This document shows, one piece after another, positions 5,072 through 53,097 of a DNA stretch of 53,097 nt. The notes beneath the pieces are model-generated. The model ran no database searches, was not told the origin of the DNA, and saw nothing but the letters and a program-made list of their open reading frames with translations. The stretch is from an uncultured bacterium (GTDB lineage Bacteria > Hydrothermota > Tepidihabitantia > Tepidihabitantales > CAIPLT01). Positions within the stretch are counted from its first letter, which is position 1. Every line of letters starts with the position of its first letter. The stretch lies in the NCBI GenBank assembly GCA_964473505.1, contig CAYYPG010000002.1, positions 1 to 53,097 on the forward strand. Reading direction: 5' to 3'. Made by a program: the position numbers and the translations under genes.

Positions 5072-6934
5072 ATGACGACACCAAAATCTAAGCCGATTAA
5101 AATTACTGATACCACGCTTCGTGATGCTCACCAATCATTATGGGCGACTCGAATGAAAACTGATGAGATGGTACCGGTACTCCAAAAGTTAGACCAAGTC
5201 GGCTATTGGTCATTGGAAATGTGGGGTGGAGCAACTTTTGATGTATGTATTCGCTATTTAAAAGAAGACCCCTGGGAACGACTGGCAATGATTCGAAAAG
5301 AAGTCAAAAACACAAAACTCCAGATGCTTTTACGGGGTCAAAATATTGTTGGTTATCGCAATTATCCTGACGATTTGTTAGAGGCGTTTATTGAAAAATC
5401 AGCCGAAGCCGGCATTGACATCTACCGAATTTTTGATGCCTTAAATGATGTTCGGAATCTGGAGGCCGCGATAAAGTTTGTTAAGAAATATAAGAAACAT
5501 GCGCAAGGCACATTATGTTATACAATTAGTCCAATTCATACTATTGATTACTACTTAAAATGTGCCAAAGCTCAGGTAAATTTAGGTATTGATAGTATTT
5601 GCATTAAAGATATGGCTGGGATAATTGCTCCCCGGGTTGCTTTTGAACTGGTTAAAAGATTAAAAGCCGAGATTAAACTACCGGTTCAACTTCATTCTCA
5701 TTCCTCCAGTGGAATGGTGGTTGCGAGTTATTGGAAAGCCATTGAAGCCGGGGTTGATATTATCGATACCGCTCATGGTCCCTTATCGTTTGCCACTTCA
5801 CAACCCGCAGTAGAAACAATTATTGCAATGCTCGCTGATACACCTTATGCGCCTAAATTATCATTAGACAAGATTGCCGAAATCTCCGAATATTTTGAAA
5901 CACTCCGACAGAAACAGAATATTACAATAGATAAAATCATCGATGAAATGGTACTAATTCATCAAATTCCTGGAGGAATGGCATCAAACCTTCAATCTCA
6001 ATTAAAAGAACAGAACGCGGTTGACCGATTACCAGAAGTTTTAGCTGAGGTGCCTAAAGTGAGAAAAGATTTAGGTTATCCGCCTTTAGTAACACCTACT
6101 AGTCAAATTGTTGGTGTCCAAGCGGTATTTAATGTCTTAGCCGGCGAGCGGTATAAAATTATTCCGGAGGAGATAAAGAACTATGTCCGTGGCTTATACG
6201 GTAGACCGCCCGCACCAATTAAAGATACAATCCGCAAAAAAATTCTCGGTGAAGAAAAAACAATTAGCAAACGACCCGCGGATTTATTAGAGCCGGTACT
6301 GGATAAAGTCAAAAAAGAACTGGATAAAAAATATGTTAAAAAAGAAGAAGATTATATTACTTATGCTTTGTTTCCTGAAGTTGCTCTGCGATACTTTGAG
6401 TATCGGGAAAACCCATCGCAATTTGATGAAAAGGAACAAAGTGAGGAAGAAAATATGCGGAAAGAAGATAAAGAAGGGTTAGATATATTAAAAGAATTAT
6501 TGGAACTATACAGCAAACATAATATTGCCGAACTGGAATGGGAATTTTCGGGTAATAAGGTGAAGATTCGGAAATCAGCTGGTGCGCCCGTAATCACGCA
6601 AGCGCCGATTGCCGCAGAAACTAAACCGCAAACCTATGTTGACCAAACAAGCACAACCCCTCAATCAGAAAAACCGACAAGTAGCACTAATTATGAAGAG
6701 ATAAAATCGCCTATGGTAGGAACCTTTTATAGTCGACCCCGTCCTGATGCTCCGCCTTATGTTAATAAAGGCGATATTGTTGATGTTGGTGAGACTTTAT
6801 GTGTCATTGAAGCGATGAAGTTAATGAACGAACTTGAAGCGGAGAAAAAATGCAGAATTATCGATATCTTGGCTAAAGATGGTGATGCGGTCGAATATGG
6901 ACAAGCATTGTTCTTAATCGAACCTTTCTCATAA
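5072..6934 (+). CDS. biotin-dependent carboxyltransferase (PycB/OadA 5S-type) fused to an AccB-type biotin carboxyl carrier domain
   Basis: 620-aa ORF. N-terminus ITDTTLRDAHQSL (pyruvate carboxyltransferase/HMGL-like domain). The C-terminus SPMVGTFY...GETLCVIEAMKLMNELEAE is a complete AccB-like BCCP with the biotinyl-Lys motif. Confidence 0.8.
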   Translation: MTTPKSKPIKITDTTLRDAHQSLWATRMKTDEMVPVLQKLDQVGYWSLEMWGGATFDVCIRYLKEDPWERLAMIRKEVKNTKLQMLLRGQNIVGYRNYPDDLLEAFIEKSAEAGIDIYRIFDALNDVRNLEAAIKFVKKYKKHAQGTLCYTISPIHTIDYYLKCAKAQVNLGIDSICIKDMAGIIAPRVAFELVKRLKAEIKLPVQLHSHSSSGMVVASYWKAIEAGVDIIDTAHGPLSFATSQPAVETIIAMLADTPYAPKLSLDKIAEISEYFETLRQKQNITIDKIIDEMVLIHQIPGGMASNLQSQLKEQNAVDRLPEVLAEVPKVRKDLGYPPLVTPTSQIVGVQAVFNVLAGERYKIIPEEIKNYVRGLYGRPPAPIKDTIRKKILGEEKTISKRPADLLEPVLDKVKKELDKKYVKKEEDYITYALFPEVALRYFEYRENPSQFDEKEQSEEENMRKEDKEGLDILKELLELYSKHNIAELEWEFSGNKVKIRKSAGAPVITQAPIAAETKPQTYVDQTSTTPQSEKPTSSTNYEEIKSPMVGTFYSRPRPDAPPYVNKGDIVDVGETLCVIEAMKLMNELEAEKKCRIIDILAKDGDAVEYGQALFLIEPFS

Positions 6935-7174: not shown

Positions 7175-8728
7175 ATGAAAAAACCCAAACCAGTAAAAAT
7201 CATTGATACTACTTTTCGCGATGCTCACCAGTCATTAATGGCGACTCGTTTAAGAACTGCTGATATGTTACCAATTTGCGATAAGATGGATAAGATTGGT
7301 TTTTTTGCAATGGAAGTATGGGGTGGCGCAACCTTTGATGTCTGTATTCGTTATTTGGCTGAAGACCCTTGGCAAAGACTTCGCTTGCTAAGAGAACATC
7401 TGCCAAATACAAAACTATTAATGCTTTTACGGGGTCAAAATATTGTTGGTTATCGTAACTACCCAGATGATGTCTTAGAAAAATTTATCAAACTGGCTAA
7501 AAAGAACGGTATAGATATCTTTCGGATTTTTGATGCTCTTAATGATATCAGAAATATGGAGCGAGCGATTAAGACCGCAAAAGATATAGGTGCTGAGGTG
7601 CAAGGAACAATTTCTTACACCACTAGTCCAGTACATACCATTGATAAGTTCGTTGAATTTGCCCAGCAATTAGAAGAGATAGGTTGTGACTATTGTTGTA
7701 TTAAAGATATGGCTGGACTTATTTCGCCCCAAGCGGCTTATGAATTAGTTACCGCCTTAAAGCAGAAACTAAATATTCCGGTCGATTTACACACGCATTG
7801 CACCAGTGGAATGGGACCAATTAGTTATTTTTCGGCAATTAATGCCGGGGTTGATATTATTGATACCGCAATCTCTGTGTTTGCTGGTGGTAGTTCGCAA
7901 CCGGCTTGCGAAAACATGGTCGTCAGTCTTAAAGGAACACTTCGGGATACGGGTCTGGATTTAGAAAAACTCATTGAGATTGGTTACTATTTTTTAGAGA
8001 TTAAAAAGAAATATCAAAAATTCATTAGTCCAATTGCGGAAATGACCGATACCACAGTAGCAGTGCATCAGATTCCTGGTGGTATGCTCTCTAATCTCTA
8101 TTCACAACTCAAAGAACAAAATGCCCTGGATAAATATCAAGAAGTATTAAAAGAGACTCCCAGAGTCCGAGAAGATTTGGGTTATCCGCCTTTAGTGACA
8201 CCAACCAGTCAGATTATAGGTACCCAAGCGGTAATGAATGTTCTGTCTGGAGAACGATATGCCCAGATAAGTAAAGAAGTTAAAGATTATTGTTTAGGAT
8301 ATTATGGACGACCACCAGCACCAATTAAGAAAGAATTAATGGAAAAAATTATTGGCGATGAGCAACCAATTACTTGTCGGCCAGCAGATTTACTAAAACC
8401 TGAATTGCCGCAAAGAAAAATTGAAGCCGAGCAACTTGGAATATTGAGAAAAGGTTCCGAAGAAGAAGATTTAATAACTTATGCTTTATTTCCGCAGATT
8501 GCGGTCAGTTTCTTACAAGGAAAAACCGAACCAGAAAAATTAGCATCAGAAGTTAATGTTACCACAGACAGTAGCACTGACGAAAAGAAGATAATTGCGA
8601 TTGCGGTTGCTTTACACCAACATCTTGCTGCTAATTCCCAATATGCTTCCAATATTAGTTCGTATAGTAAAAGACAAACCGTATCCGAATGGAAATCAGT
8701 CGCGCGGCGAGAAGCCTTAAGAAAATGA
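7175..8728 (+). CDS. biotin-dependent carboxyltransferase 5S-type paralog without a carrier domain
   Basis: 517-aa ORF that is colinear with residues 1-450 of the preceding gene (IIDTTFRDAHQSL, HQIPGGM, GYPPLVTPTSQI). Has no AMKM motif. TGA stop. Confidence 0.8.
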   Translation: MKKPKPVKIIDTTFRDAHQSLMATRLRTADMLPICDKMDKIGFFAMEVWGGATFDVCIRYLAEDPWQRLRLLREHLPNTKLLMLLRGQNIVGYRNYPDDVLEKFIKLAKKNGIDIFRIFDALNDIRNMERAIKTAKDIGAEVQGTISYTTSPVHTIDKFVEFAQQLEEIGCDYCCIKDMAGLISPQAAYELVTALKQKLNIPVDLHTHCTSGMGPISYFSAINAGVDIIDTAISVFAGGSSQPACENMVVSLKGTLRDTGLDLEKLIEIGYYFLEIKKKYQKFISPIAEMTDTTVAVHQIPGGMLSNLYSQLKEQNALDKYQEVLKETPRVREDLGYPPLVTPTSQIIGTQAVMNVLSGERYAQISKEVKDYCLGYYGRPPAPIKKELMEKIIGDEQPITCRPADLLKPELPQRKIEAEQLGILRKGSEEEDLITYALFPQIAVSFLQGKTEPEKLASEVNVTTDSSTDEKKIIAIAVALHQHLAANSQYASNISSYSKRQTVSEWKSVARREALRK

Positions 8729-10020: not shown

Positions 10021-10088
10021 AGGAGGCAGTGTCTAATATTTTGTGTAAATTAAGGGTCGATATGAAGAAAAGATGTACTCTCTCCTGA
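10021..10088 (-). repeat. B-family repeat copy
   Basis: The reverse complement aligns with 361-428 and 48381-48448. The core GTGTCTAATATTTTGTGTAAATT is at 10029-10051. Confidence 0.6.
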
Positions 10089-10140: not shown

Positions 10141-10410
10141 ACAAATTACACAAAAATCTTGACACTTTCACTTAATTTCCATTCTTACGCCAAATTCTTT
10201 TGGAATAGAGCGCACTTGTTCTTTATCTTTTAAATACTACTTTTCACCATCTTTTAAGCAAAAATAAACATAAAAACATTAGTTATAACTAATGTTTTAG
10301 ACAAGGCAGATTTTTAGATAAGTTGTTGTTTTTTATAGAGATCTTGCATTTTGACCTAAAAAGAGGGTACAGTCCCCTCCACAGTCCTCTGGATTGCTTG
10401 AAAAATAGTC
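10141..10410 (+). repeat. C-family element, copy 1 (~260 nt)
   Basis: About 75-80% identical by eye to the reverse complement of 51941-52195. Contains a perfect 26-bp palindrome AAAACATTAGTTATAACTAATGTTTT (10273-10298) and the stem AGAGGG..CCCTCT. Confidence 0.65.
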
Positions 10411-10729
10411 AGAAAAGTCGTTTTGAGAAGTAAGGTCAGAAAAATATTGGCGTTACGGGAAGTGTTGGTTTGGGTAAAGATATAATTGTCAATTTATGGG
10501 CAATTGGCAAAATCAGGATGCGTGGAGTCGGAAAAATCATTCAGGAATTAATTGTCTATGCGGATGTTGCAATCATTCTTCTTATTATTATACGATGCGT
10601 TGCCAATATATTGTATCTCAATTCGCCGGCTACTTTATCTAACATTATCAGAACAACATATCGGATTTTATCATTAATCCCTGGCATCTGCTTTTTAAGA
10701 TACTTAAAAGGCGTCTAATAGTCGGGTCC

Positions 10730-12426: not shown

Positions 12427-13011
12427 ATGTATATTCCGATTGTAATTGAACAAACCAGTCGGGGCGAACGGGCTTACGATATCTATTCCCGTCTCTTAAA
12501 AGAACGAATTATCTTTGTCGGAATGCCCATTGATGACAATGTTGCCAATCTCGTAATTGCCCAATTACTGTTTTTAGAAGCCGAAGACCCAGATAAAGAT
12601 ATCTTTCTTTATATCAATTCGCCTGGAGGAATCGTTTCGTCCGGGTTAGCCATCTATGACACAATTCAATATATTCGTCCCAAAGTTTCGACAATTTGTA
12701 TGGGCATGGCGGCAAGTCTTGCCGCATTACTTTTAGCCGCTGGTGAAAAAAACAAACGATTCGCTTTACCCCATTCGCGAATTATGATTCATCAGCCTGA
12801 GGTATCCGGACTGTCCGGACAAGCCACAGATATTGAAATTCACGCCAAGGAAATTCTGCGCTTAAAACAGCAATTAGCCGAACTTTTAGCCAAACACACC
12901 AACCAGCCAATTGAAAAGATTCTTGCCGATTCTGACCGTAATTATTTTATGTCCGCCGAAGAAGCCAAAGAATATGGTATCATTGATGAAGTAATTGAAA
13001 AAAGAAAATGA
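12427..13011 (+). CDS. clpP: ATP-dependent Clp protease proteolytic subunit
   Basis: 194-aa ORF with [26 protein letters not shown], the catalytic context [11 protein letters not shown], and HQP. Confidence 0.95.
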
Positions 13012-13113
13012 GCAAAAATGTTCCTAATCACTTCTCAAACCAAATTTCAATAGAACTTATTAAAACGATGAGCGGAATATTTATAATTGACCATAACGCC
13101 ATGCAGTACTTTT
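12986..13113 (+). repeat. L arm, copy 1 (last 8 clpP codons plus stop, then 102 nt)
   Basis: 128/128 nt identical to the reverse complement of 41993-42119, checked base by base. Confidence 0.9.
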
Positions 13114-13235
13114 TTTGGCAAGGTACAATTGCCAATGTTCCACCTCAAGGTGGCCGAAAGCATCCTGAACAAGAATATATCCAAATCAATACTAAAAATA
13201 TTCTCTTTATCTGCGACCGTCATAGCAGTGAGTAA
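13008..13235 (+). CDS. chimeric 75-codon ORF (L-arm N-terminus plus a 32-codon ClpX segment); expression unproven
   Basis: The ATG overlaps the clpP stop (ATGA). Residues 39-70 are identical to Clp[33 protein letters not shown] see no independent sign that it is functional. Confidence 0.25.
13120..13215 (+). repeat. ectopic copy of an internal clpX segment
   Basis: 94/96 nt identical to 14322-14417. Both mismatches are synonymous T/C third positions. Confidence 0.95.
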
Positions 13236-13274
13236 GAAAATGAGCAGAAATGCTTTTTTGTCAACTAGTCTGGT

Positions 13275-13385
13275 AGAGAACTCTGACAAAGTCAATATTG
13301 GTTCAAAAGACATGAAATGCAGAAGTATAATTATTGGTTTTTTCTTGTAGGGTTCGGTGTCTTGTGAGCATTTTTCAGAGATTTC
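13275..13385 (+). repeat. A-family element, copy A1 (points toward clpX)
   Basis: 108/111 identical to the reverse complement of 41690-41799. Contains the inverted repeat TGACAAAGTCA (13284-13294) and TTCAAA (13302-13307)-18 nt-TATAAT (13326-13331). Confidence 0.85.
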
Positions 13386-13711
13386 TGGTAAAACAACCAT
13401 TTTACTACTTAGAAATCTTGACACAGCATCGGATTATTGACGAAGTACCGAAAAAGCGAAGAAATTGGGAAAACATATGAAATGAAATTATGAATTGGAA
13501 AAAGACACCTGTAACGAACACTCGTAACCTTGATACATTAATACGGCTTCGTTAGTAGAAGCCGAAAACCTTGTGGGCTGTAATGAACACTCATAAACTT
13601 GTAGATATACATAAATACCGTTGCCCGATTAGTGTTAATTCGTGGCGACGAAAATTTTATCGTTGAATTTATGAAGATTAACGATAGTCCTTGTGAGGTA
13701 TAACCTAATTT

Positions 13712-14932
13712 ATGAAAACTCGTCGTTGTTCATTTTGTAATCGACCGGAAAATCGGGTTCGAATGCTCTTCGGCGGGCATAATGCTAATATCTGTGATGA
13801 CTGTGTCCGTTTAACTTGGAATCTTATGCAGGATAAGGAGAAACATCGTTTTTTTGCTACACTTCCAACATTACCCACCCCACCTGAAATTAAATCCTTT
13901 TTAGATGAATATGTTATTGGACAAGAACAGGCAAAAAAAGTCTTATCTGTTGCGGTTTACAATCATTATAAACGGGTCTTCTCGCGAAAACCCAATATTG
14001 ATATTGACAAAAGCAATATTCTCCTCATTGGTCCTACAGGTGTTGGAAAAACCCTTTTGGCCGAAACCTTAGCCAAGTTTCTCAATGTGCCATTTTCCAT
14101 TTCTGATGCTACGCCCCTTACTGAAGCCGGCTATGTTGGCGAGGATGTGGAAAATATCCTGTTACGACTCATTCAAGCCGCTAATTGGGATTTAGACTTA
14201 GCCTCAATTGGTATTGTCTATTTAGACGAGATTGATAAGATTGGTCGTAAAAGCGACTCACCATCTATCACGCGCGATGTCTCGGGTGAAGGTGTCCAAC
14301 AAGCCCTGTTAAAAATCCTTGAAGGTACAATTGCCAATGTTCCACCTCAAGGTGGCCGAAAGCACCCTGAACAAGAATATATCCAAATCAACACTAAAAA
14401 TATTCTCTTTATCTGCGGTGGTACCTTTTTTGGCTTAGAAAAGATAATTGAAAATCGACTAAAAAAGTCTGGCATCGGTTTTCAAGCAGATATTGTTTCT
14501 AATAATCGAGATAAAGACGAACTTTTGAAATTTGTCGAACCTGATGATCTGATAAAATTCGGACTGATTCCGGAATTAGTGGGCAGATTACCTGTTGTGG
14601 TTTCACTACATAGTCTTTCTCGTGAATCCTTGCTTGATATTTTGACCAAACCACGCAATGCTTTAATTAAACAATATCAGTACTATTTTGATTTAGAAAA
14701 TGTGAAATTAACTTTTGAGCCTACGGCCTTGGAAAAAATTGCGGATTTAGCTTTAGCCTGCAATACCGGTGCCCGCGGTCTTCGAGCAATCTTAGAAAAT
14801 GTGCTCTTAGATATAATGTTTGATTTGCCCTCTAAAAAGAATCTCAGTGAATGTATTATCACGGCGGAAACCATAATGGGTGGACCACCTAAGTTTATTG
14901 TAAAGAAACTGAAACGTAAACGTGAAGCATAA
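13712..14932 (+). CDS. clpX: ATP-dependent Clp protease ATP-binding subunit ClpX
   Basis: 406-aa ORF with an N-terminal zinc-binding CSFC...CDDC, Walker A GPTGVGKT, pore loop GYVGED, Walker B YLDEIDK, the GGRKH loop and the IGF loop. Confidence 0.95.
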
Positions 14933-21254: not shown

Positions 21255-21760
21255 TAAATCCGTTTATCATAAAGGAATAAAAACCTATATATTTCGTGTG
21301 AAAATCTTTTCAACTAAAAATAGAAAAGGATTAAGTCACCCCAAAATAAGATTGAATAATATCCCACCTATCATTAACAAGTGACCAAGTAAATCTCAAC
21401 TTATTAGAATAAATTCTCTTATCCTTTAAAAAATAAAAGAAACAAACCAATCCAATAAGTTGATTTAAAAATTCATCTATCATTAAGAAGTAAACAGGTA
21501 AACTCTAATAAAATCATCTTAACTTAAAAAAGCAAAAGAATGAAAATAACCCATACATTTTGAGTAAAAATCCGTTTGGCTTAAAAAAGTAAGGGAACAA
21601 AATACCCCAATAAGTTGGTATAAGAATCTATTTATCATTAAGAAATAAATAAATAATAAAAATCCTCTAAACTTAAAAAAAAGAATAAAATGATCCCGTA
21701 CATTTTGAGTAAAATTCGATTATCTTACAAAGAAAAAGAATACATAATTTTTTAACGAAG
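21255..21760. repeat. very AT-rich degenerate tandem repeat block (about 90-155 nt units)
   Basis: Recurring sub-motifs: ATC..TTATCATTAAGAA at about 21258, 21361, 21471, 21626 and 21713; CCAATAAGTTG at about 21451 and 21607; ACATTTTGAGTAAAA at about 21555 and 21699. Confidence 0.55.
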
Positions 21761-21898
21761 CACCCGATTTGGTTTGGTAAGCAATCCAATTATTCATCTC
21801 ATCTGTTGTCTTATTGAACATCTATCAGTTAAATCAAGAGACTACTCAGAAATCAGTTTAAAATACTGTCGATTTGATAGTTGGACAGGCAATCCCTT

Positions 21899-21942
21899 GG
21901 GTACCCCCCTGGATATCCCCTGGGTATACCCTCTGGTATACC
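21899..21942. repeat. four phased GC-rich palindromes, exact 12-bp period
   Basis: GGGTACCC (21899-21906), GGATATCC (21911-21918), GGGTATACCC (21922-21931) and GGTATACC (21935-21942). Their centres are exactly 12 bp apart. Confidence 0.8.
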
Positions 21943-21977
21943 TGGGAGATTGTCCATTAGATAAAGGAGATTGCCAG

Positions 21978-22060
21978 GGAGATATGATCAAATGTTGTGG
22001 AAAATTGAATATATCAATAAAAACACTTGATGAGACCTTATAAAAGGAAAAAGATATCTC
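21978..22060 (-). repeat. D/E repeat unit (reverse D motif plus 55-nt E segment)
   Basis: Colinear with 22245-22328 (GAGATATGATCAAATGTTGTGGAAAATTGAAT..CTTGATGAGACCTTATAAAAGGAAAAAGATAT). Confidence 0.6.
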
Positions 22061-22084
22061 TAATATATCTAAATTAAAATATAA

Positions 22085-22106
22085 CAACTGTTGTGAAAAA
22101 TTGAAG
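22085..22106 (-). repeat. partial reverse D motif
   Basis: CAACTGTTGTGAAAAATTGAAG resembles TCAAATGTTGTGGAAAATTGAAT. Confidence 0.4.
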
Positions 22107-22244
22107 ACATGTCGTTTTATGGGTAAAACAAAAGCGCCGACACCAGTTAAAATATTAATGTGTCGGCAGAAGGACAAATTAACATGAAAGATTATGTCAA
22201 AAATCAAATTAAGTCAAGAACTATCTTGAACCGCCAGCATAAAC

Positions 22245-22366
22245 AGAGATATAATCAAATGTTAGGGAAAACTGAATGTATCGATAAAAATCCCTTGATG
22301 AGACTTTACAAAAGGAAAAAGATATACCTAAACTATAATAAATTTCCACTAACATTGACAATATCT
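22245..22366. mobile_element. MITE-like unit bounded by roughly 25-nt imperfect terminal inverted repeats (D motif)
   Basis: The left end AGAGATATAATCAAATGTTAGGGAAAA pairs with the reverse complement of the right end AGATATTGTCAATGTTAGTGGAAATT (about 21/25 with one indel). It has no ORF and I see no clear target-site duplication. Confidence 0.4.
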
Positions 22367-22434
22367 TTTATTTCTCAGCCCAATGGTTATTAAATTTGGA
22401 GAGTTAGCTTATGATGGAACCTTATATAAAAAGA

Positions 22435-22473
22435 AGATATACTTAACGATCCATAAACATTGACAATGTCTCT
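22435..22473 (+). repeat. D-motif copy (internally shortened)
   Basis: AGATATACTTAACGATCCATAAACATTGACAATGTCTCT. Confidence 0.5.
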
Positions 22474-22492
22474 CTTAGGAATAAGACCTTAC

Positions 22493-22537
22493 AGATATGC
22501 CTAACTAATAATAAAGTTTCACAAACATAAACGATAG
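22493..22537 (+). repeat. D-motif copy (diverged)
   Basis: AGATATGCCTAACTAATAATAAAGTTTCACAAACATAAACGATAG. Confidence 0.5.
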
Positions 22538-22586
22538 TTTTGAACCACCAATAGAAAATTTACCAGGAACAGGAAAATACTGTTTT

Positions 22587-24257
22587 TTATGATAAGCCGA
22601 GTATCTTTCCGTTTTCATCAAGGTCAATACGCATCGCATTCGGTGTTTTAGCAAGCCCAGGCATTAAAGTAATCTCACCGGCTAAAGGTACCAGAAAACC
22701 TGCGCCGGCAGAAATACTAATATCAGTAATTGTAATTTTAAAGTTTTCTGGTCGGCCATAAAGGGTTGGGTCATCACTTAAAGAGCGGTTGGTTTTAGCA
22801 ATACAAATTGGCAGTTTTGCTAAACCTAATTTTTCAATCCGCATAATATCTTTTTCAGCTTTTGGCGTATAGACGACTCGATTCGCACCATAAATCTCAG
22901 TTGCAACTTTTTCGATTTTGATCGCAATTGAATCCTCTAATTCATATATTGGTTTTGGATTGGCTGGATTTTGTTCAATGGTTTTGATTATGGTTTGAGC
23001 TAAATCAATAGCGCCTTCACCTCCAGATTGAAAACTATGAACTTCAACACAAGCAACCTGATTTTGATCACAATACTCTTTAACAATTTTGATTTCATCA
23101 TCCGTATCATCGAAAAACCTATTGAGTGCAACTATTGCCGGCATTCCCAATTTTTTAACATTTTCAATATGTTTTGCCAGATTCGGTAACCCCTGTTTGA
23201 GATGTTCAATTGTGCCGGACTTCAAGTCTTTTTCCTGAGCACCGCCATGTAATTTCAAAGCCCTGATTGTTGCAACAATTACTGCGGCATCTACCTTAAA
23301 ACCGGCAAATCGGGATACGATATCAATAAATTTCTCCGCACCTAAATCCGAACCAAAACCGGCTTCGGTGACAACATAATCTGAAAGTTTTAATGCCATT
23401 TTGGTTGCAATTACACTACTTGTACCATGAGCAATATTCGCAAATGGTCCGGTATGAATGAATGCTGGTGTCTGTTCAATTGTCTGCACTAAATTGGGTT
23501 TAAGCGCATCTTTTAATAAAACCGCCATTGCACCGCAAACTCCTAAATCGCCGGCGGTTATAGGATTATTATGGATATCAAAGGCAACTAAAATTCGGCA
23601 CAATCTTTGTTTTAATTCTTTAAGTGAACTCGATAACCCTAGAATTGCCATTACCTCACTGGCAGCAGTAATGATAAAACCATCTTCCCGAGCAGGACCA
23701 TTAGTCTTGCCACCTAAACCGACTACAATATTACGTAAACTTCGGTCATTCATATCCATTGCTCGCTTAATCAAAATTTCCCTTTCGTCTATTTGCAACT
23801 TGTTACCAAAATGGATATGGTTATCTAATACCGCACATAAAAGATTATGTGCGGAACTGACCGCATGAATATCTCCAGTAAAGTGTAAATTTATATCTTC
23901 CATAGGTAACACTTGAGCATAACCTCCGCCCGCAGCACCACCTTTTATACCAAATACCGGACCCAAAGAAGGTTCCCGCAAGGTGACAATTGATTTCTTG
24001 CTCAATTTATTAAAAGCCATACTCAGTCCAATTGCCACGGTGGTCTTACCTTCGCCATAGGCAGTTGGCGTAATCGCGGTAATGAGAATTAACTTGCCAT
24101 TCGGATTGGATTTAATCTTTTCCCAGAACTGAAGGGAAATTTTGGCTTTGTATCGACCACAAGGCAAAATATATGCTTCGGCTATGCCCAATTGGTCCGC
24201 CAAATTCTCTATGGGGATTAGTTTTGCGGCTTGAGCAATTTCAATATCTGTTTTCAT
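22587..24257 (-). CDS. fhs: formate--tetrahydrofolate ligase
   Basis: 556-aa ORF with MKTDIEIAQ, PTAYGEGKTT (P-loop) and full-length colinearity with the FTHFS family. Confidence 0.9.
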   Translation of the reverse strand: MKTDIEIAQAAKLIPIENLADQLGIAEAYILPCGRYKAKISLQFWEKIKSNPNGKLILITAITPTAYGEGKTTVAIGLSMAFNKLSKKSIVTLREPSLGPVFGIKGGAAGGGYAQVLPMEDINLHFTGDIHAVSSAHNLLCAVLDNHIHFGNKLQIDEREILIKRAMDMNDRSLRNIVVGLGGKTNGPAREDGFIITAASEVMAILGLSSSLKELKQRLCRILVAFDIHNNPITAGDLGVCGAMAVLLKDALKPNLVQTIEQTPAFIHTGPFANIAHGTSSVIATKMALKLSDYVVTEAGFGSDLGAEKFIDIVSRFAGFKVDAAVIVATIRALKLHGGAQEKDLKSGTIEHLKQGLPNLAKHIENVKKLGMPAIVALNRFFDDTDDEIKIVKEYCDQNQVACVEVHSFQSGGEGAIDLAQTIIKTIEQNPANPKPIYELEDSIAIKIEKVATEIYGANRVVYTPKAEKDIMRIEKLGLAKLPICIAKTNRSLSDDPTLYGRPENFKITITDISISAGAGFLVPLAGEITLMPGLAKTPNAMRIDLDENGKILGLS

Positions 24258-28550: not shown

Positions 28551-28630
28551 GATTTCTCCTTTCTTTTCTTTTTCATAGATTGGTTATTTGTTTAGCATAT
28601 TTATACTCACATACATATTTTGCTTCTCTA

Positions 28631-28883
28631 ATAATTACTGAAACAATAATTTTGTAATTCGATTTTTTTGTTAATAGTTTTTATATGTTTGGCTTTTTTA
28701 TTTTTACAGAACATATGCTGTTTTTCTAGATTCCGATACATAATTATTAGACTAATAAATTTGTAATTCGGTTCTTTTTGTTAATAGTTTTTATATGTTT
28801 ATTTTTACAGAACATATGCTGTTTTTCCAAATCTCGCCACCATAATTATTATGCTATTAAATTTGTAAAATTCAGTTTGTTTG
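28631..28883. repeat. 2.4 tandem copies of a roughly 105-nt unit upstream of prx
   Basis: Units are 28631-28739, 28740-28841 and the partial 28842-28883. Each starts ATAATTAYTRNAMYAATAAWTTTGTAA and the full units contain TATATGTTT..ACAGAACATATGCTG. Confidence 0.8.
28744..28758. promoter_or_regulatory. perfect 7-1-7 inverted repeat (Fur/PerR-type operator candidate) in repeat unit 2
   Basis: TTATTAG-A-CTAATAA. The equivalent positions in units 1 and 3 are degenerate (4/7 and 5/7 arm matches). Confidence 0.35.
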
Positions 28884-28932
28884 TCCCAAGACGCAACCGA
28901 GAAATTTACCTAATTACCTTATCTAATTTTTA

Positions 28933-39319: not shown

Positions 39320-39390
39320 CAAGGGAAAAGACGCATCGTTTTCTTTAACATATCGATACTGAACTTAAATAAAATATTTAGACACCACCT
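39320..39390 (+). repeat. B-family copy
   Basis: CAAGGGAAAAGACGCATCGTTTTCTTTAACATATCGATACTGAACTTAAATAAAATATTTAGACACCACC. A partial inverted B 5' piece (AGATGTACTCTTA) lies at 39296-39308. Confidence 0.55.
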
Positions 39391-39724
39391 GTTCATGATA
39401 TAGACATTAATAGTTAGTAAAAATCTTTATATGTGATTGAACCGTATTCAGGTTCGACTTATGGTTGTTGCCTTATTTATTTATTTATTTTTAGTTCAAT
39501 CTTTCTTTATATGGATCAAACTGACATCATGTGACATCTGACTATATAAGGAGACTTTATCAGGATGGTAATAGACTAGGGGCTAGCCCCGACCTAGACC
39601 AATACTAGCATATTGAAAAGCATAGGCTACCTTATATACCGCAGCCTGGGTCGCTTACCCGTTAGCCATCAATGTCTAAATGTAAATAAAATACCTTAAA
39701 GTTTTCTAACCAATTTTTAAGAAA

Positions 39725-39828
39725 ACGAAAAAATGCTCAAAAGACGCGAAAGAAAAATTAAAAAATTCGCTTCTGCACTCCGAGTCACTTGAGGTATATA
39801 TTGGTTTTCTCAGAGTTCGCTTAAAGAG
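39725..39828 (-). repeat. A-family copy A6 (diverged)
   Basis: ACGAAAAAATGCTCAAAAGAC...GCTTCTGCA...CTCAGAGTTCGCT aligns with the A consensus at its ends. Confidence 0.4.
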
Positions 39829-41622: not shown

Positions 41623-41689
41623 TTTATTTTCCTCATCCTAAAGAGTCAAATAGACCAAGAACAAAAAATTATTGGAAAATAACCTTTTG

Positions 41690-41799
41690 GAAATCTCTGA
41701 AAAATGCTCATGAGACACCGACCCTACAAGAAAAAACCAATAATTATACTTCTGCATTTCATGTCTTTTGAACCAATATTGACTTTGTCAGAGTTCTCT
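41690..41799 (-). repeat. A-family element, copy A2 (points toward purH)
   Basis: 108/111 identical to A1. The minus-strand TATAAT is at 41743-41748, about 115 nt upstream of the purH ATG. Confidence 0.85.
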
Positions 41800-41950
41800 T
41801 TTGTATCTCTGTTTTTTCATCGACTCCGCAGAGAGTAATTAATTCCAGTTTCGGTCCGGTTGTCCATAATTGTGCTAAAATCGTTTTTGCCACATCTTCC
41901 TCGATTGAATTATTTATCTTCAAATGTAAGGTCAACTCGGTTTTTCCCTT

Positions 41951-42097
41951 TTATCCATTATTTTTAGTCCGATTCTTTAAATATAAAATCATAAAGTACT
42001 GCATGGCGTTATGGTCAATTATAAATATTCCGCTCATCGTTTTAATAAGTTCTATTGAAATTTGGTTTGAGAAGTGATTAGGAACATTTTTGCTCAT
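41951..42097 (-). CDS. 48-codon L-arm ORF, copy 2; expression unproven
   Basis: [35 protein letters not shown] is identical to the first 35 residues of ORF 13008-13235 and is followed by a different tail. Too short for the ORF track. Confidence 0.2.
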   Translation of the reverse strand: MSKNVPNHFSNQISIELIKTMSGIFIIDHNAMQYFMILYLKNRTKNNG

Positions 42098-42119
42098 TTT
42101 CTTTTTTCAATTACTTCAT
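41993..42119 (-). repeat. L arm, copy 2 (includes a copy of the clpP 3' tail)
   Basis: Exact reverse complement of 12986-13113, apart from a 1-nt uncertainty at the boundary. Confidence 0.9.
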
Positions 42120-42231: not shown

Positions 42232-43428
42232 TCAGGCTCCGAATTTTTTCAGTTTTAGACTATGGGCTAATAATAATGGCATCACTTTGGTCTGGTGAAA
42301 TATTCCCAGACTGCCTTGAGCACAGTTTTTTTCAGAAAACTTGTCGTAATTGTCTTTGCGTGCATATGACGAATAAAGTAAAAACGGGTTCGGATGCCAA
42401 GAATGACCTTTTAAGATTGCAGGCGTTGAGTGGTCAGAAGTTATGGCGAGCACATCAAACTTCAGTTGAAGAATCTCAGGTAATAAAGAATCAAATTTTT
42501 CAATCAATTTGATTTTGCCCTCAAAATCGCCATCTTCGCCTTTCATATCAACCTCTTTAAAATGGAGATAAAAGAAATCAAAATCATGTGAATTTTTCGT
42601 CAAGGTCTCAATTTCCGATTCCCAGGTCTCTGCGGTGGCTAATACTTTCATTCCGACTAAACTGGCAATACCCTTATACATTGGATAAGTAGCAATTGCG
42701 GCTGGTGTTATTGGATAAAGACGACTCATCGGCTCAAGATTAGGATTGTGTGCGAAACCCCGTAATAATATGTAGTTGGCTTTGGGTTCATCTTTTAGTA
42801 ATTCTGTTACTCGGCTGATGAAGAGATTAACGATTCTTTCGCTGTGCTTCGCTTGGGAGGAAAGCGCAGCAATTTTAAATGGTGCTTTCCCTTCTTTCTG
42901 CGGATCCGATTCGCTCAAGTCTGAACTTAAATCTTTTCCCCGAAACACAATTACAAAACGATGTTCTTTACCTGGCCGAATAATAATTTCGACATCTTCA
43001 ATTTTTTTAATTGTTTCGGATAATTTTGTACAGATTCTCTGATTTTCTTCAGTAGAAATTCTGCCGGCGCGTCGGTCAATTATAATACCATTTTCTATCG
43101 TGGCAAAATTTGCTCGGACACACAAATCATCAGGTCCGACTTCCAAACCCACGCCTAGTGCTTCTAAAATGCCTCGACCAATTTGATGTTTAATCGGGTC
43201 ATAACCAAACAAAGCCAGATGCGCGGGCCCACTACCAGGAGTAATGCCATAATCAACCGGAATAGTTAAACCCAAACTACTATTTTTAGCCAATTTGTCC
43301 AAGTTTGGTGTCCGGGCTGTTTCCAGTTCAGTCTTACCATTTTGAGGAGGCGTTCCACCTAAACCATCAATAACAATTAATAAAATCTTTTTTTGATTTA
43401 CGGTAAAAAGTGGTTTTAGTAATTCCAT
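42232..43428 (-). CDS. apgM: cofactor-independent phosphoglycerate mutase, archaeal-type
   Basis: 398-aa ORF with LLIVIDGLGG, FFYLHFKEVD..GEDGD and ITSDHSTP, as in metalloenzyme-superfamily ApgM. TGA stop. Confidence 0.8.
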   Translation of the reverse strand: MELLKPLFTVNQKKILLIVIDGLGGTPPQNGKTELETARTPNLDKLAKNSSLGLTIPVDYGITPGSGPAHLALFGYDPIKHQIGRGILEALGVGLEVGPDDLCVRANFATIENGIIIDRRAGRISTEENQRICTKLSETIKKIEDVEIIIRPGKEHRFVIVFRGKDLSSDLSESDPQKEGKAPFKIAALSSQAKHSERIVNLFISRVTELLKDEPKANYILLRGFAHNPNLEPMSRLYPITPAAIATYPMYKGIASLVGMKVLATAETWESEIETLTKNSHDFDFFYLHFKEVDMKGEDGDFEGKIKLIEKFDSLLPEILQLKFDVLAITSDHSTPAILKGHSWHPNPFLLYSSYARKDNYDKFSEKNCAQGSLGIFHQTKVMPLLLAHSLKLKKFGA

Positions 43429-43525
43429 ATTAGTTGTCTAAACTTTTAAGAAAATGCAAGGCAACAATAGTTTTAGTAATTCCATATTAGTTGTCTAAAC
43501 TTTTAAGAAAATGCAAGGCAACAAT
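43413..43525 (-). repeat. exact tandem duplication (56 nt x2, period 57) spanning the apgM start codon
   Basis: 43413-43468 is identical to 43470-43525. Each copy contains CAT (ATG on the minus strand) plus the first five codons. Confidence 0.9.
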
Positions 43526-43635
43526 GAAGTTTACTATCGAACCATTGAACGCAAATAAAAGATCATGAAATACAATCCCGATTTCTTTTTCTCGTCTTCT
43601 AATTCTGCGTTTCGGAAACAATTTATTCCCTTCAG

Positions 43636-44661
43636 TTAGAACTGACTAATAAACCGAATATCATTTTCATAAAAGAGTCGCAAATCGTCAATTCGATATT
43701 TTATCATTGCAATTCGTTCTACGCCCATTCCAAAAGCATATCCCAAATATTTTAACGGATCATAGCCTACGCAAGAAAAGACTGCCGGATGAACCATACC
43801 AGCCCCAAGAATTTCCAACCAACCGGTATTTTTACAAGTCTTACAACCTTGACCATCACAGATAACGCACGAGATAGCAACTTCAGCACTCGGTTCAGTA
43901 AATGGGAAGTATGAAGGTGTAAATCTTATTTTAATCCCTGAGCCAAACATTTCCTGACAAAATTTTTCTAAAGTTCCTTTTAATTCTGCCATACTAACAT
44001 TTTCATCGACAAATAGCCCTTCTACCTGATGGAAAACCGGCGAATGCGAGGCATCGAAATCATCCGGTCTAAAGACTCTTCCTGGCGCAATAATTCTTAT
44101 TGGCGGTCGATTATCTTCCATCACTCGAATCTGAACCGGCGAAGTATGGCTTCGTAAAAGATACTTATTATTTAAGTCTGTTGTCGGTAAATAAAAACAC
44201 GCAATTTGGTCTCGGGCCGGATGTTCTTCGGGAAAATTCAAGGCGGTATAATTATACCATTCAGTTTCTACTTCTGGACCGAGTTTTTCTTTAAATCCCA
44301 TACCAACGAAAATTTGCACGATTTCTTCCATTACTTTTGTAATCGGATGTTTATGGCCTAAGAATGTTTTTTTCCCAGGTAAAGTTAAATCGATGCGCTT
44401 TTGGGCTTTCTTTATCTCTTCTTCAATTTGGAGTTCTGTTTTCTTAATTTCAATAAGTTGTTCCAGTTCTTTTTTGATGCGATTGGCCAATTCACCTTGA
44501 GTACGGCGTTCTTCAAGTTGTAACTTTCCAAGTTCCCTCAAAAAGAGCGTAATTACACCTTTACGACCCAAATATTTTATGCGCAGTTGGTCTAATTCAA
44601 TAAGGGATTTAACATCTTGAATTAACTTTTCCGCTTCCTGTTTAACTCTTATCAAATCCAT
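43636..44661 (-). CDS. pheS: phenylalanine--tRNA ligase alpha subunit
   Basis: 341-aa ORF with class II aaRS motifs (FRPD.FDASHSPVFHQVEG, GFAFGMGVERIAM). Confidence 0.9.
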   Translation of the reverse strand: MDLIRVKQEAEKLIQDVKSLIELDQLRIKYLGRKGVITLFLRELGKLQLEERRTQGELANRIKKELEQLIEIKKTELQIEEEIKKAQKRIDLTLPGKKTFLGHKHPITKVMEEIVQIFVGMGFKEKLGPEVETEWYNYTALNFPEEHPARDQIACFYLPTTDLNNKYLLRSHTSPVQIRVMEDNRPPIRIIAPGRVFRPDDFDASHSPVFHQVEGLFVDENVSMAELKGTLEKFCQEMFGSGIKIRFTPSYFPFTEPSAEVAISCVICDGQGCKTCKNTGWLEILGAGMVHPAVFSCVGYDPLKYLGYAFGMGVERIAMIKYRIDDLRLFYENDIRFISQF

Positions 44662-44840
44662 ATAATTATTCTCTACATTCTGATAATTTTATCATCCTTG
44701 CCATAAGAGAACAATTCTGATGTGATTGAAAATATTCTGTTTAACTCTTATCAAATCCATATAATTCCTCTTTACATTCTGATAATTTTGGTATCCTTGA
44801 GCTATAAGATAGTAATTCCTGATGCGATTAAAGATATTCT
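44638..44840 (-). repeat. tandem duplication (99 + 104 nt, about 85% identity) spanning the pheS start codon
   Basis: Both copies begin CTGTTTAACTCTTATCAAATCCATATAATT and end ..ATATTCT. The upstream copy opens a 22-codon uORF (44692-44760). Confidence 0.85.
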
Positions 44841-44860
44841 ATTCTTTCAGCCGATATGTT

Positions 44861-48380: not shown

Positions 48381-48448
48381 TGGGAAGGGAGTACACATTC
48401 TTCTTCAACATATCAATACTGAATCTACACAAAATATTATACACTGCC
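48381..48448 (+). repeat. B-family copy
   Basis: TGGGAAGGGAGTACACATTCTTCTTCAACATATCAATACTGAATCTACACAAAATATTATACACTGCC. A partial inverted core (TTTTGTGTAAATT) is at 48323-48335. Confidence 0.6.
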
Positions 48449-48650
48449 GTTTAATTCCTTTGTCCGATAACAAAGATTATATTTAGATTGATTTTATCGA
48501 TGAGTGGGTCAAGAAGGATTTATATATTACAGTCTGAAGAATCCTGATGATATTATGCGGAAATTTATCGGAAATCTAATAGCACAGCGATGAAACATCA
48601 TAAAAGGCTTAATGAATAAAAATGAATAAAATACGATTTTTCTGTGAGTT

Positions 48651-49109
48651 TTAAGGACTTACGGTTTTTTTTACCAATGATTTGATATATTCAATTACTT
48701 TACTTTTCGCATTCAAAATCTCGGTGCTTAAATCGGAACTCATCGTAAATGATTTGGGCTGAATGCCAATTAAAGAAATGCGACAATTGTGTTGTCTTTT
48801 TATCAATTCAATTGTTAAAGTTAATGGTAGGGTATGGGTCGACATTAACCCATAGGAAATCTCTTGGATTTCGTTTTCTTCAAAAAATTTAAATTCACCA
48901 GGTTTACCTTCAAAATTACATGCATCAACAAAAATTATCCAATCAGGTTTTTCCGCAACCACTTTATCAATATAATTTTCAGGTGAAATGCCGGCATCAT
49001 AAATTATGACATCATTTAAATTATAAGATGTAAGTTCTTGAGCAATCAGACTGCCAATAGCATCATCAGAACACATTCGGTTGCCAATACCCACTATGAC
49101 TAATTTCAT
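48651..49109 (-). CDS. hydrogenase maturation endopeptidase (HycI/HybD/FrhD family)
   Basis: 152-aa ORF with MKLVIVGIGNRMCSDDAIG and a ..DA....G... ..STH pattern. No hydrogenase structural gene is present in the window. Confidence 0.7.
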   Translation of the reverse strand: MKLVIVGIGNRMCSDDAIGSLIAQELTSYNLNDVIIYDAGISPENYIDKVVAEKPDWIIFVDACNFEGKPGEFKFFEENEIQEISYGLMSTHTLPLTLTIELIKRQHNCRISLIGIQPKSFTMSSDLSTEILNAKSKVIEYIKSLVKKTVSP

Positions 49110-49355
49110 CTTGAGATTAAAGGATTGTAAATGACTGCATAAATTAAGATTTAAGTTCTTGTATGGATAATCAAACTGCCAATAGTATCATCAGAACGCG
49201 TCCGGTTGCCAATACTGACTATGATTAATTTCATTTTAAGATTAGTGGATTGTCTTGGACAGCATAAAACAGAAGTTAAGTTCTTGTGTTATTAGATTTC
49301 AAATGGCTTCATCAGAGGGCATTAGATTATTAATCCAGTTCAGGGCTTTTTTCAT
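49031..49355 (-). repeat. three progressively degenerate tandem copies (about 120-125 nt) of the protease gene's 5' end plus leader
   Basis: Units are 49031-49150 (the real start), 49151-49275 and 49276-49355. ATG equivalents are at 49109, 49234 and 49355. Copy 2 encodes MKLIIVSIGNRTRSDDTIGSLIIHTRT* and copy 3 encodes MKKALNWINNLMPSDEAI*. Confidence 0.8.
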
Positions 49356-50792: not shown

Positions 50793-50944
50793 ATTTCACT
50801 AACCTAACTTAATGAAGTCAAGTAGCCAATTTTAATTAGCATACAAAAATTTCTTTTGCTGTCAAGTAATTTACGGAGAAACCCTGCAAAATGTCCAGAT
50901 TATACCGAGATACGAAAGAAAGACCAAGATACTCATATGTGCGA

Positions 50945-50986
50945 GTTGTGTCACTTGAGATAAGATTGACTCTGTCTGAGTTCTCT
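50945..50986 (-). repeat. partial A-family piece
   Basis: GTTGTGTCACTTGAGATAAGATTGACTCTGTCTGAGTTCTCT matches the distal 40 nt of A6 and the A consensus. Confidence 0.4.
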
Positions 50987-50993
50987 ACAGGAA

Positions 50994-51100
50994 GAAATCT
51001 GAAAAATGTTCAAAAGCCACCAAGACCCATAAGAAAAAAACAACAATTATGTTTCTGCATTTCATACCTTTTGAACCAATATTGACTTTATCAGGGTTAT
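50994..51100 (-). repeat. A-family copy A3 (points toward ptb)
   Basis: About 80% identical to A2 by eye. Its -10 equivalent is CATAAT (51046-51051, minus strand). Confidence 0.7.
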
Positions 51101-51340
51101 TTACGAAAAATTCTCAGGATGGTAAGTAAGCCAATCCGCCACTGATTAATTTTATTCTGTTTTCAGTTCTCCATTCAACACTGGCAGACTTAAATAAGTA
51201 AACAGATATTTATATGATTGATTTTGGGAATTTTTAACTTTTTAGCACTTTGCTGATAATTTTTTATTTATCTGGTAATGATCACATCGCTCATAATAAG
51301 TAAAATGATTTTTTCAAGAACGCGCCCGATTTTGACACAA

Positions 51341-51410
51341 AAGGTAGTGTATAATATTGGAGGTAAATTTAGTATTGATATGTTAAAGAAAAAGTGTCTC
51401 TTTTTGCTCA
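51341..51410 (-). repeat. B-family copy
   Basis: The reverse complement reads GAGCAAAAAGAGACACTTTTTCTTTAACATATCAATACTAAATTTACCTCCAATATTATACACTACC. Confidence 0.55.
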
Positions 51411-51463
51411 TAAATCGATTCTAATATCTCTGCCCGAACTTGATTGTCAAGGTAACTCAATAA

Positions 51464-51570
51464 AAACTCTGAAAAATGCACAAAAGACACCGCGACCATA
51501 AGAAAAAACCAATAAATATGCTTCTGCATTTCATGCTGTTTGAACCAATATTGACTTTGTCAGAGTTCTT
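51464..51570 (-). repeat. A-family copy A4
   Basis: About 85% identical to A2 by eye (CTCTGAAAAATGCACAAAAGACACCG...GAACCAATATTGACTTTGTCAGAGTTCTT). Confidence 0.7.
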
Positions 51571-51587
51571 TCAAAAATTTCTTCTTA

Positions 51588-51905
51588 AAGATAAATGATT
51601 TCCTAAATTGCGGATACGATAATTTTGACTATTATTTTTTGAATGATTTTCTCAACTCCACTCATATTTATTCTACTAATTGCTCATAAATTAACACTTA
51701 TCCCTCTGTTAAAACCGACCCTCAAGACAACTACATTTTTTCATTGAAAAGATTAAATGATTTCCTAAATTATTGATACTATAACCCTGACTATTATTTT
51801 CTGGTTTGTTTACTCAATTCCACTCATATTTATTCTGTCAATTGTCCAGAAATTAATACTTATATTTCTGCCAAAACCAAACCTCAAACCAACTCCCAAA
51901 TTTTT
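51588..51905. repeat. tandem repeat, 2 x about 160 nt
   Basis: The units start at 51588 and 51748 (AAAGATWAAATGATTTCCTAAATT...CACTCATATTTATTCT...). Confidence 0.75.
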
Positions 51906-51940
51906 CCTGACTCTACTTTCCAGGACTACTTTCTTGCCTA

Positions 51941-52195
51941 TTTTTTAAGCAACCCAGAGGGCCATGGATGGGACTGTACCCTCTTTTCAGAACAAAATGC
52001 AATATCTTTATGAAAAACAATAAACTACCCGAAAATCCGGCCTGTTTAAAACATTAGTTATAACTAATGTTTTTGCGTTTGTTTTTAAGTGAAAAATGGC
52101 AAAAAGTTTTAGAAAGATTTAACACAGCAAAGTCTATTGCAAAAAGAAATTAGCGTAAAAAGGAGAATTAAATCAAGTTTGACTCAAAGTCTTAC
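51941..52195 (-). repeat. C-family element, copy 2 (inverted relative to copy 1)
   Basis: Carries the same 26-bp perfect palindrome at 52048-52073. CCAGAGGGCCATGGATGGGACTGTACCCTCT corresponds to 10363-10392 on the opposite strand. Confidence 0.65.
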
Positions 52196-52609: not shown

Positions 52610-52950
52610 ATAAATGCGTCTGGTATTTTTTTTCTAATCCATAATATTTTTAGTGCCTTAATAGGGGAGTAAAATTTAGGTAAGAAAATAGACCCGGAAT
52701 ACTATGGAAAGGATATTAAAATCTGAATACTATGCAGCATCATAATTATTAATAATATTTTTATCACCTTATCGGGAAATAAAATCCAGTAAGAAAATAG
52801 AGCCTAAATATTATTGATTGGGATACTAAAATCTGAATGCTATGCGTCATCATTAGTCAATATATTAAGCTTATTATATTATCCATAATATGCCTTAGTG
52901 CCTTATTGGGTTCCTAAAATCTGAATACTATGTGCCATCATTAGTCAAAT
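52610..52950. repeat. tandem repeat, about 3 units of 90-110 nt
   Basis: TAAAATCTGAATRCTATGYRNCATCAT recurs at 52717, 52827 and 52915, and the flanks also align. Confidence 0.7.
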
Positions 52951-52967
52951 ATTAAGAAAGAAAACGC

Positions 52968-53042
52968 CGAAAAATACTCAAGGGACGTCGAGTCCCCAAA
53001 AAACCAACAATTGTGCTTTCTGCATTTCATACCTTTTGAAAC
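52968..53042 (-). repeat. A-family copy A5 (diverged/partial)
   Basis: ..AAAAAACCAACAATTGTGCTTTCTGCATTTCATACCTTTTGAAAC matches the central part of A. Confidence 0.45.
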
Positions 53043-53097
53043 GGTGCTGTGCCAAGACATTGTATCTCTTTCCAAGGACCTAATTCTACGGCTACTT

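Follow-up and report, generated by a model that had tools for sequence, protein, structure and literature searches.

Two intergenic regions of the 53,097-nucleotide stretch of DNA analysed here (the window) look alike, one between clpP and clpX in the gene order tig-clpP-clpX-tolB (locus 1) and one between apgM and purH in the gene order pheS-apgM-purH (locus 2). In both, a segment called the L arm is followed by a core and by a second segment, the A arm, and the question is whether the two regions are copies of one cassette with exchangeable contents or have come to resemble each other by separate events. The L arm is located at 12986–13112 (+) and again at 41993–42119 (-), identical at 127/127 positions (E~1e-60); the near-perfect identity given in the initial annotation is thus retained, while its length of 128 nt is not, base 12985 being different from 42120. 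At both loci the arm opens with the 3' end of clpP, as had been described, namely the last 26 nt encoding ..DEVIEKRK and the stop codon, and this ClpP C-terminus is conserved in the more distant relative (contig L055). The A arms, 13275–13385 (+) and 41690–41799 (-), agree at 108/111 positions, the same figure as before, and the two cores, 13113–13274 (162 nt) and 41800–41992 (193 nt), are likewise without detectable common sequence. No integrase or other recombinase, transposase, reverse transcriptase, nuclease or mobile-element gene was found within the window, in line with the annotation, and the enzymes involved should therefore act in trans.

The closest available relative is represented by Logan contigs L054 and L056 (SRR8371833), with 95–96% nucleotide identity to the window over 13.3 kb. 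Homologues of trigger factor and of ApgM assign the window to candidate division WOR-3. More distant are contigs L055 and L057 of the WOR-3 MAG GCA_026418155.1, with about 80% nucleotide identity, and contig L059 (GCA_965648945.1), which is 86% identical by its ApgM protein and was sampled for the apgM-purH spacer. Together they give a dated series of spacer expansion, from 85 nt (L055) to 468 nt (L054) and 700 nt (window) between clpP and clpX, and from 130 nt (L057) to 411 nt (L056) and 609 nt (window) between apgM and purH, the latter spacer being 152 nt long in L059. The A arm, as well as L at the apgM locus, is absent from the sampled more distant relatives with spacers of 85, 130 and 152 nt. 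Many tandem duplications of about 60–160 nt are also present in the spacers. When all available proteins were compared by tblastn with the 137 kb of DNA from this organism, only the clpX piece treated below and a tandem copy of the start of hycI were recovered.

Over the 13.3 kb shared with the close relative, the only window-specific gaps of at least 100 nt are four, namely a segment in the clpP-clpX spacer that we call the X block (113 nt), the A arm copy A1 with its target-site duplication (TSD; 115 nt), the L copy at apgM (127 nt), and the A arm copy A2 with its TSD (114 nt). In L054 the L sequence downstream of clpP is native and 93% identical up to 13102, and what is missing is exactly 13103–13215 and A1 with one TGGTA. 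In L056 the orthologue of core 2 is present together with its flanks, and exactly the 127-nt L and A2 with one CAAAA are absent. Core 2 (41804–41992, - strand) is orthologous to L056 2562–2763 at 84% identity and is therefore native apgM-purH spacer, while the stretch between the X block and the A1 site (13216–13270, + strand) aligns to L054 2056–2105 at 88%; core 2, and core 1 outside the X block, are accordingly the ordinary spacer sequence of the two loci. The coding origin proposed for core 2 is not borne out, since its stop-free frame has no homologue among 5.8 billion proteins and is broken by indels in L056, and a protein search with the L ORF and the core 2 frame returned only the window's own ORF. 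Two ORFs of 75 and 48 aa starting in L were also rejected as genes, exact look-ups giving no record and the frame being broken by a 1-nt deletion in L054.

It is thus very probable that the 'L - core - A' likeness came about by chance, through four independent recent insertions in two ordinary spacers of a candidate-division WOR-3 bacterium.

Two of these insertions are copies of one short repeat. A1 is an element of 110 nt at 13276–13385 (+; 114.9 bits with model R1), absent in L054 and flanked by TGGTA on the left (13271–13275) and on the right (13386–13390). The empty site in L054 reads GCTTGTAAAAC with a single TGGTA, and the window reads TCTGGTA followed by A1 and TGGTAAAAC. A2, of 109 nt, is located at 41690–41798 (-; 110.4 bits with model R1) between two copies of CAAAA (41799–41803 and 41685–41689, - strand), and the corresponding empty site in L056 is GAGATACAAAAACTTATT. 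The different TSDs and the separate empty sites in a relative of about 96% identity indicate that A1 and A2 are independent transpositions. Of all copies sampled these two are the most alike (97.3%, other pairs reaching at most 94%), and they differ at subfamily-diagnostic positions, A1 being close to copy L025 and A2 to copies L021 and L041. Both are younger than the split from the relative of about 96% identity and so lie near the active master copy, which explains their likeness.

The A arm had been taken as specific to the two loci, but seven copies lie in the window and contigs of the same metagenome carry another 18. The other five in the window, all on the - strand, are found at 51460–51573 (88% identical to A1), 50992–51103 (82%, directly adjoining the next copy), 50879–50988 (diverged, 45 bits), 39719–39823 (diverged, about 70%) and 52957–53049 (truncated at the 5' end). 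The 18 copies come from a scan of the metagenome with a conserved 19-base pattern, which gave 12 more FMJZ01 contigs, and neither L nor either core is located near A on any of them. The 25 significant matches to model R1 are all intergenic. Homology starts and stops at the same two positions in every copy, the element measures 109–112 nt, within the MITE range of under ~600 bp, and has stop codons in all frames, and its sequence runs from GAGAACTCTGACAAAG to CATTTTTCAGAGATTTC, the family termini being also written GAGAACTCTGACAAAG...CTTTTTCAGAGATTTC. The terminal inverted repeats are short and imperfect, GAGAACTCTGACAAAGTC matching the reverse complement of the 3' end, GAAATCTCTGAAAAATGC, at 13/18 positions with a perfect CTCTGA core, and the ends pair in single-sequence folds. 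With a strict model a perfect 5-bp TSD is found for 7/16 copies, against 0.4% in a mismatched-flank control; flanking direct repeats of at least 5 nt occur at 8/16 copies and in 6% of mismatched flank pairs, a count that 0/20,000 permutations reached. The TSDs of other copies are AAATA, TAATT, ATAAT, AGAGA and TTATG, and a clean TSD is missing in about half of the older copies.

These features make it highly likely that the A arm is a non-autonomous, MITE-like transposable element of about 110 bp. It would be mobilised by a transposase encoded elsewhere in the genome, leaving TSDs of about 5 bp. A1 and A2 are separate young insertions (TSDs TGGTA and CAAAA), both recent copies of the active lineage. 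An autonomous IS with ends matching A was found neither in the window nor in 137 kb of this organism's DNA. The A pattern gave only 13 single chance matches in unrelated taxa among representative genomes, a set that does not include this organism. Plasmid and phage BLAST searches with the A consensus and scans of viral contigs for A and L gave no matches. The family appears to be undescribed so far.

One may ask whether A is primarily a functional module spread by selection, such as a promoter, a protein-binding site or a small RNA, rather than a selfish MITE. A contains a promoter-like site, outward or internal (TTCAAA-N18-TATAAT, scoring 10/12), its internal segment TTCAAAAGGCATGAAATGCAGAAGCATAATT is the best-conserved part and is kept also in old and truncated copies, and all seven copies in the window follow the direction of the local genes. 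However, promoter and terminator scans place such matches at chance level for DNA this rich in AT, and on the other contigs A lies in either orientation with respect to its neighbouring genes. RNAalifold gave a consensus of -2.6 kcal/mol for A with seven invariant pairs, none of them covarying, and Rfam yielded no match to A or L with E up to 1. The TSDs and empty sites show A spreading by transposition, with which a later exaptation would still be compatible, and selection for function as the primary cause of its spread is considered unlikely. Two more specific candidates were rejected, a REP/BIME-type palindromic repeat (a stable G+C-rich hairpin of 20–40 nt) as A has no conserved hairpin, and a structured small RNA for either A or L as Rfam gives no match and A shows no covariation.

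The third insertion, the X block, occupies 13103–13215 (+) and corresponds to a clean 113-nt gap in L054. The initial annotation had described core 1 as a clpX fragment, and 13120–13215 does match clpX 14322–14417 at 94/96 positions in the same orientation, although the remainder of the core outside the X block is native spacer. The clpX-derived part is also longer than these 96 nt and shares 10 nt with the end of the L arm. It opens with GCAGTACTTTTTTTGGC, 17 nt homologous to 14418–14434, that is to the 17 nt located 3' of the 96-nt stretch in clpX, and then continues with the 96-nt match, so that the X block is an exact-length circular permutation of the clpX segment 14322–14434 (+, codons ~204–241). 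It agrees with the rotated clpX at 108/113 positions for the window gene and 109/113 for the L054 gene, and the mismatches fall at positions of synonymous clpX allele drift. A diversity-generating retroelement acting on the clpX pair, which should leave a template and a variable repeat that differ at adenines, was considered and rejected, the differences (T/C, C/T, A/G) being synonymous drift as judged against L054 and L055, and no reverse transcriptase gene being present in the window. There is neither a TSD nor microhomology at the junctions of the X block. By parsimony X is an insertion in the window rather than a precise deletion in L054. On this reading a 113-nt copy of clpX was inserted bluntly 1.2 kb upstream, in the clpP-clpX spacer and in rotated order. 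The rotation might have come about through an intermediate that was either tandem or a circle of unit length, or through a single break in the fragment and religation with its parts swapped.

The L arm has its source at clpP, where it consists of the clpP 3' end (12986–13011), native spacer (13012–13102) and the start of the X block (13103–13112). The copy in the apgM-purH spacer (41993–42119, - strand) is absent in L056, L057 and L059, and the 137 kb of sequence from this organism contain L in these two places only. The insertion point is AACTTTATT^ATGATTTT, where the first four bases of L, ATGA, repeat the next four of the target, giving a 4-nt microhomology. Since L ends in the 10 nt (GCAGTACTTT) with which the X block begins, the apgM copy was made after the X insertion. 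L is native at clpP, and the simplest reading of its apgM copy is a one-off ectopic insertion or small duplication, illegitimate and templated. In this event 127 nt, comprising the clpP end, native spacer and 10 nt of the X block, would have been copied to a place 29 kb away, most simply as an ectopic single strand or by templated repair, and joined by the 4-nt microhomology ATGA. Of the initial annotation's reading there remain one genuine captured gene fragment (from clpX) and one genuine templated ectopic copy (L), which do not form a cassette.

Gene orientation and GC skew switch at about 21–22 kb, between the two loci, and no E. coli-type dif site was found at this switch. L is inverted at apgM and has thus the same orientation as at clpP relative to gene direction and GC skew. 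This is compatible with a strand-specific, replication-linked route, to which it lends weak weight, only two orientations being possible. The chance that a random intergenic insertion falls upstream of an A copy of the same orientation, no more than 250 nt from it, is estimated at about 5%, which is unusual but not compelling, as spacers that are long and tolerate insertions accumulate events of this kind. The L and A2 insertions may be linked somehow, for example by a break-prone or insertion-tolerant spacer.

X and L might also be seen as outcomes of a single process in this WOR-3 lineage, in which chromosomal copies of about 110–130 nt are pasted into intergenic sites, sometimes via a unit-length circular intermediate of ssDNA or RNA, with X, L and the spacer tandem duplications as its footprints; we regard this as a speculative and rather doubtful extension. 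Somewhat less probable again is an RNA-templated origin, in which X and L would be reverse-transcribed pieces of the clpP-clpX operon mRNA, made by a reverse transcriptase acting in trans on a circular or end-jumped template, with the cDNA captured at breaks. Both donors belong to one co-transcribed operon, both copies are in sense relative to local transcription, and a single round of copying on a circular template should yield just such a rotation of exact unit length. Against this, the window holds no reverse transcriptase gene, neither X nor L carries poly-A or other hallmarks of retro-elements, and there are just two events. Moreover DNA routes account for these data, such as a tandem duplication that popped out, a single break in a fragment followed by religation (one in eight arrangements), or an SPDIR-like integration of single strands. 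Independent illegitimate insertions of X and L remain the preferred reading.

The initial annotation had proposed a cassette or fragment-capture element with fixed arms and swappable gene-derived cores, and had itself named ordinary spacers in relatives as evidence against it; such spacers are what the relatives have, and the comparison of empty sites refutes the proposal. In favour of a genuine unit, whose arms L and A would take up different inserts by recombination, are the same order and orientation relative to gene direction at both loci, the near-identical arms, the gene fragment inside one core, and the closeness of L to a co-oriented A copy estimated above. Yet core 2 is the orthologue of native spacer in L056, L belongs to the native spacer at clpP, the TSDs of A1 and A2 differ and each has its own empty site, and the 18 copies of A outside the window have no L nearby. 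The distance from L to A also varies, being 163 nt at one locus and 194 nt at the other, and 60 nt at the former before the X insertion, and no gene for an integrase or recombinase is found in the window, all of which makes such a unit very improbable. Nor was any evidence seen of a hotspot, which had been put forward as well, or of repeated core exchange.

The same low probability is given to an artefact of assembly or binning, in which one locus would be a chimera joined by the assembler at a short repeat. The source is a metagenome, short-read assemblies break at these repeats, and only the window assembly shows the right junctions, from L into core 2 and from L into the X block. The left junctions into L at both loci, however, are carried also by independent assemblies, GCA_900096875.1 (FMJZ01) and SRR7473445 (Logan), whose contigs are 100% identical to the window. 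Contigs FMJZ01038923 (tig-clpP side) and FMJZ01040578 (apgM side) each include exactly 40 nt of L before they end, and Logan contig SRR7473445_285 (apgM side) includes 30 nt. These ends are the de Bruijn signature, with k=41 and k=31 respectively, of a repeat in two contexts, so that both left junctions exist in reads of other assemblies and the apgM copy of L is no chimera made in the window assembly. The five differences of the X block from clpX in 113 positions, together with its rotation, could not be produced by an assembler, and A1 and A2 have proper TSDs. An exact look-up of the ClpX protein gave no record, and position 14322 is exactly where an independent Logan contig, L058, begins, both of which fit a branch of the assembly graph where the duplicated clpX segment has its edge.

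The weakest explanation is that L-core-A was duplicated as one segment from clpP to apgM, or that the two loci underwent gene conversion, and that the core was replaced afterwards. It is hardly credible even though both arms are each other's closest relatives. The sequences beside A1 and A2 are unlike up to the very ends of the element and give different TSDs, the ancestral sequence at apgM-purH is core 2, and L is 100% identical between the loci but A only 97%, with differences at subfamily-diagnostic positions; that a plain segmental duplication does not fit had already been noted.

A false lead is thereby removed, as near-identical arms around different cores can arise from young MITE copies near an unrelated micro-duplication, and it is the empty sites in a close relative that settle arm and core questions of this kind. 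What is gained is a recently active new MITE family in an uncultured WOR-3 bacterium, of use as a strain marker and in repeat-aware assembly. X is in addition one clean natural case in which a bacterial chromosome has received a templated insertion that is a circular permutation of exact length, which is rare and the only unusual feature here, and rotated insertions, if recurrent, would have a bearing on how bacteria integrate short ectopic DNA.

Among known systems, integron gene cassettes and the gene capture of Pack-MULEs and Helitrons are superficially similar in having conserved flanks around variable, partly gene-derived inserts. The loci described here have no attC-like site, integrase or array, and consist of unrelated flanking insertions with native spacer as one of the two 'inserts'. 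For the L copy the nearest described bacterial process is SPDIR, in which ectopic single strands are integrated at microhomologies (10.1101/2023.11.22.568220), reportedly in patches of 3 to about 100 bp that usually replace sequence. L is similar in its intragenomic donor, in its microhomology (4 nt at one junction) and in the absence of a recombinase site, but it is a pure insertion of 127 nt and a single event, and X is rotated and without microhomology. As short copies with 0–4 nt of junction homology, X (from 1.2 kb away) and L (from 29 kb away) also resemble the templated or 'filler' insertions at double-strand breaks (PMC12426944). Those insertions, ascribed to end joining and MMBIR/FoSTeS, have however been described chiefly in eukaryotes, and a unit-length rotated insert would be an atypical product of these routes. 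The A element compares best with MITEs, for which small size, lack of coding capacity, multiple copies, terminal inverted repeats and TSDs are among the defining features (PMC10969869, PMC3184786). It differs from the prokaryotic representatives Correia/NEMIS, RUP and MITEAba12 (PMC10969869, PMC3184786, PMC11602168) in that its inverted repeats are short and imperfect (13/18), no parent IS or transposase was found in the searched DNA, and it has no similarity to plasmid or phage records, being found only in this WOR-3 population. Like them it is about 110 bp long, non-coding, intergenic and multi-copy, has terminal inverted repeats and short TSDs, is polymorphic for presence and absence between close strains, and is presumably mobilised in trans.

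The clpX-derived block inserted in the clpP-clpX spacer (window positions 13103-13215) is an exact-length circular permutation of its 113-nt donor within clpX (14322-14434), and its junctions are blunt and lack a target duplication. The combination of these features implies that the block arose via an intermediate that would have been circular, tandem or broken and religated. Nearer to clpX, the approximately 320 nt immediately 5' of the gene (13391-13711) match positions 2110-2433 of L054, a Logan contig (SRR8371833) of a close relative, with 89% identity, and are missing in the relative of about 80% identity, where the spacer is 85 nt. This stretch is an earlier expansion of the spacer. In L054, 65 nt are also inserted where trkA ends (7677-7741, equivalent to window position ~18953); they consist of 36 novel nt with a hairpin and a flanking 29-nt target duplication.

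Tandem duplications of two copies each, the repeated unit being 57-162 nt long, are numerous in the spacers of the window, located at 28564-28884, 43413-43525, 44638-44843, 49044-49287, 51587-51906 and 52641-52883, and several of them cover gene starts, namely those of apgM, pheS and hycI. In the case of the 57-nt unit, the second copy (43470-43526) is recent, because it is missing in the 96% identical relative. In the coding region, at 5072-6934 and 7175-8728, two neighbouring paralogous carboxylase genes with HMGL-like and PYC_OADA domains show a nucleotide identity of ~69-73% across 700 nt.

Copies of the MITE-like A family are found as head-to-tail pairs with a gap of only ~5-8 nt at 50879-51103, and at 1310-1533 of L021, a sequence outside the window, which suggests either insertion beside a pre-existing copy or dimer-like transposition intermediates. 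The first pair lies in the final 2.3 kb of the contig (50793-53097), a patchwork of A copies, tandem repeats and a second dispersed family, with no ORF of at least 80 aa. The copies of this second family, of ~355 nt, are 75-82% identical and located at 10172-10526 and 51819-52171, and outside the window at L028 375-811 and L053 4986-5129; a perfect 26-nt palindrome is present at 10273-10298 and 52048-52073, and a comparison of the family with Rfam gave nothing at gathering score.

Both GC skew and gene orientation switch at ~21280-22590, a non-coding region of 1.3 kb that is full of repeats and on which the genes converge. It may be a replication terminus; a search there for a dif site of the E. 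coli type, with up to 3 mismatches allowed, gave no match. A further repeat, of 45-68 nt, occurs four times in the window (10025-10069, 39326-39393, 48393-48452 and 51339-51404), in some cases but not all with a gene downstream, and its sequence resembles that of a consensus promoter with GGAGG and an ATG behind it (TTGACA..TATAAT..GGAGG..ATGTTAAAGAAAAA).
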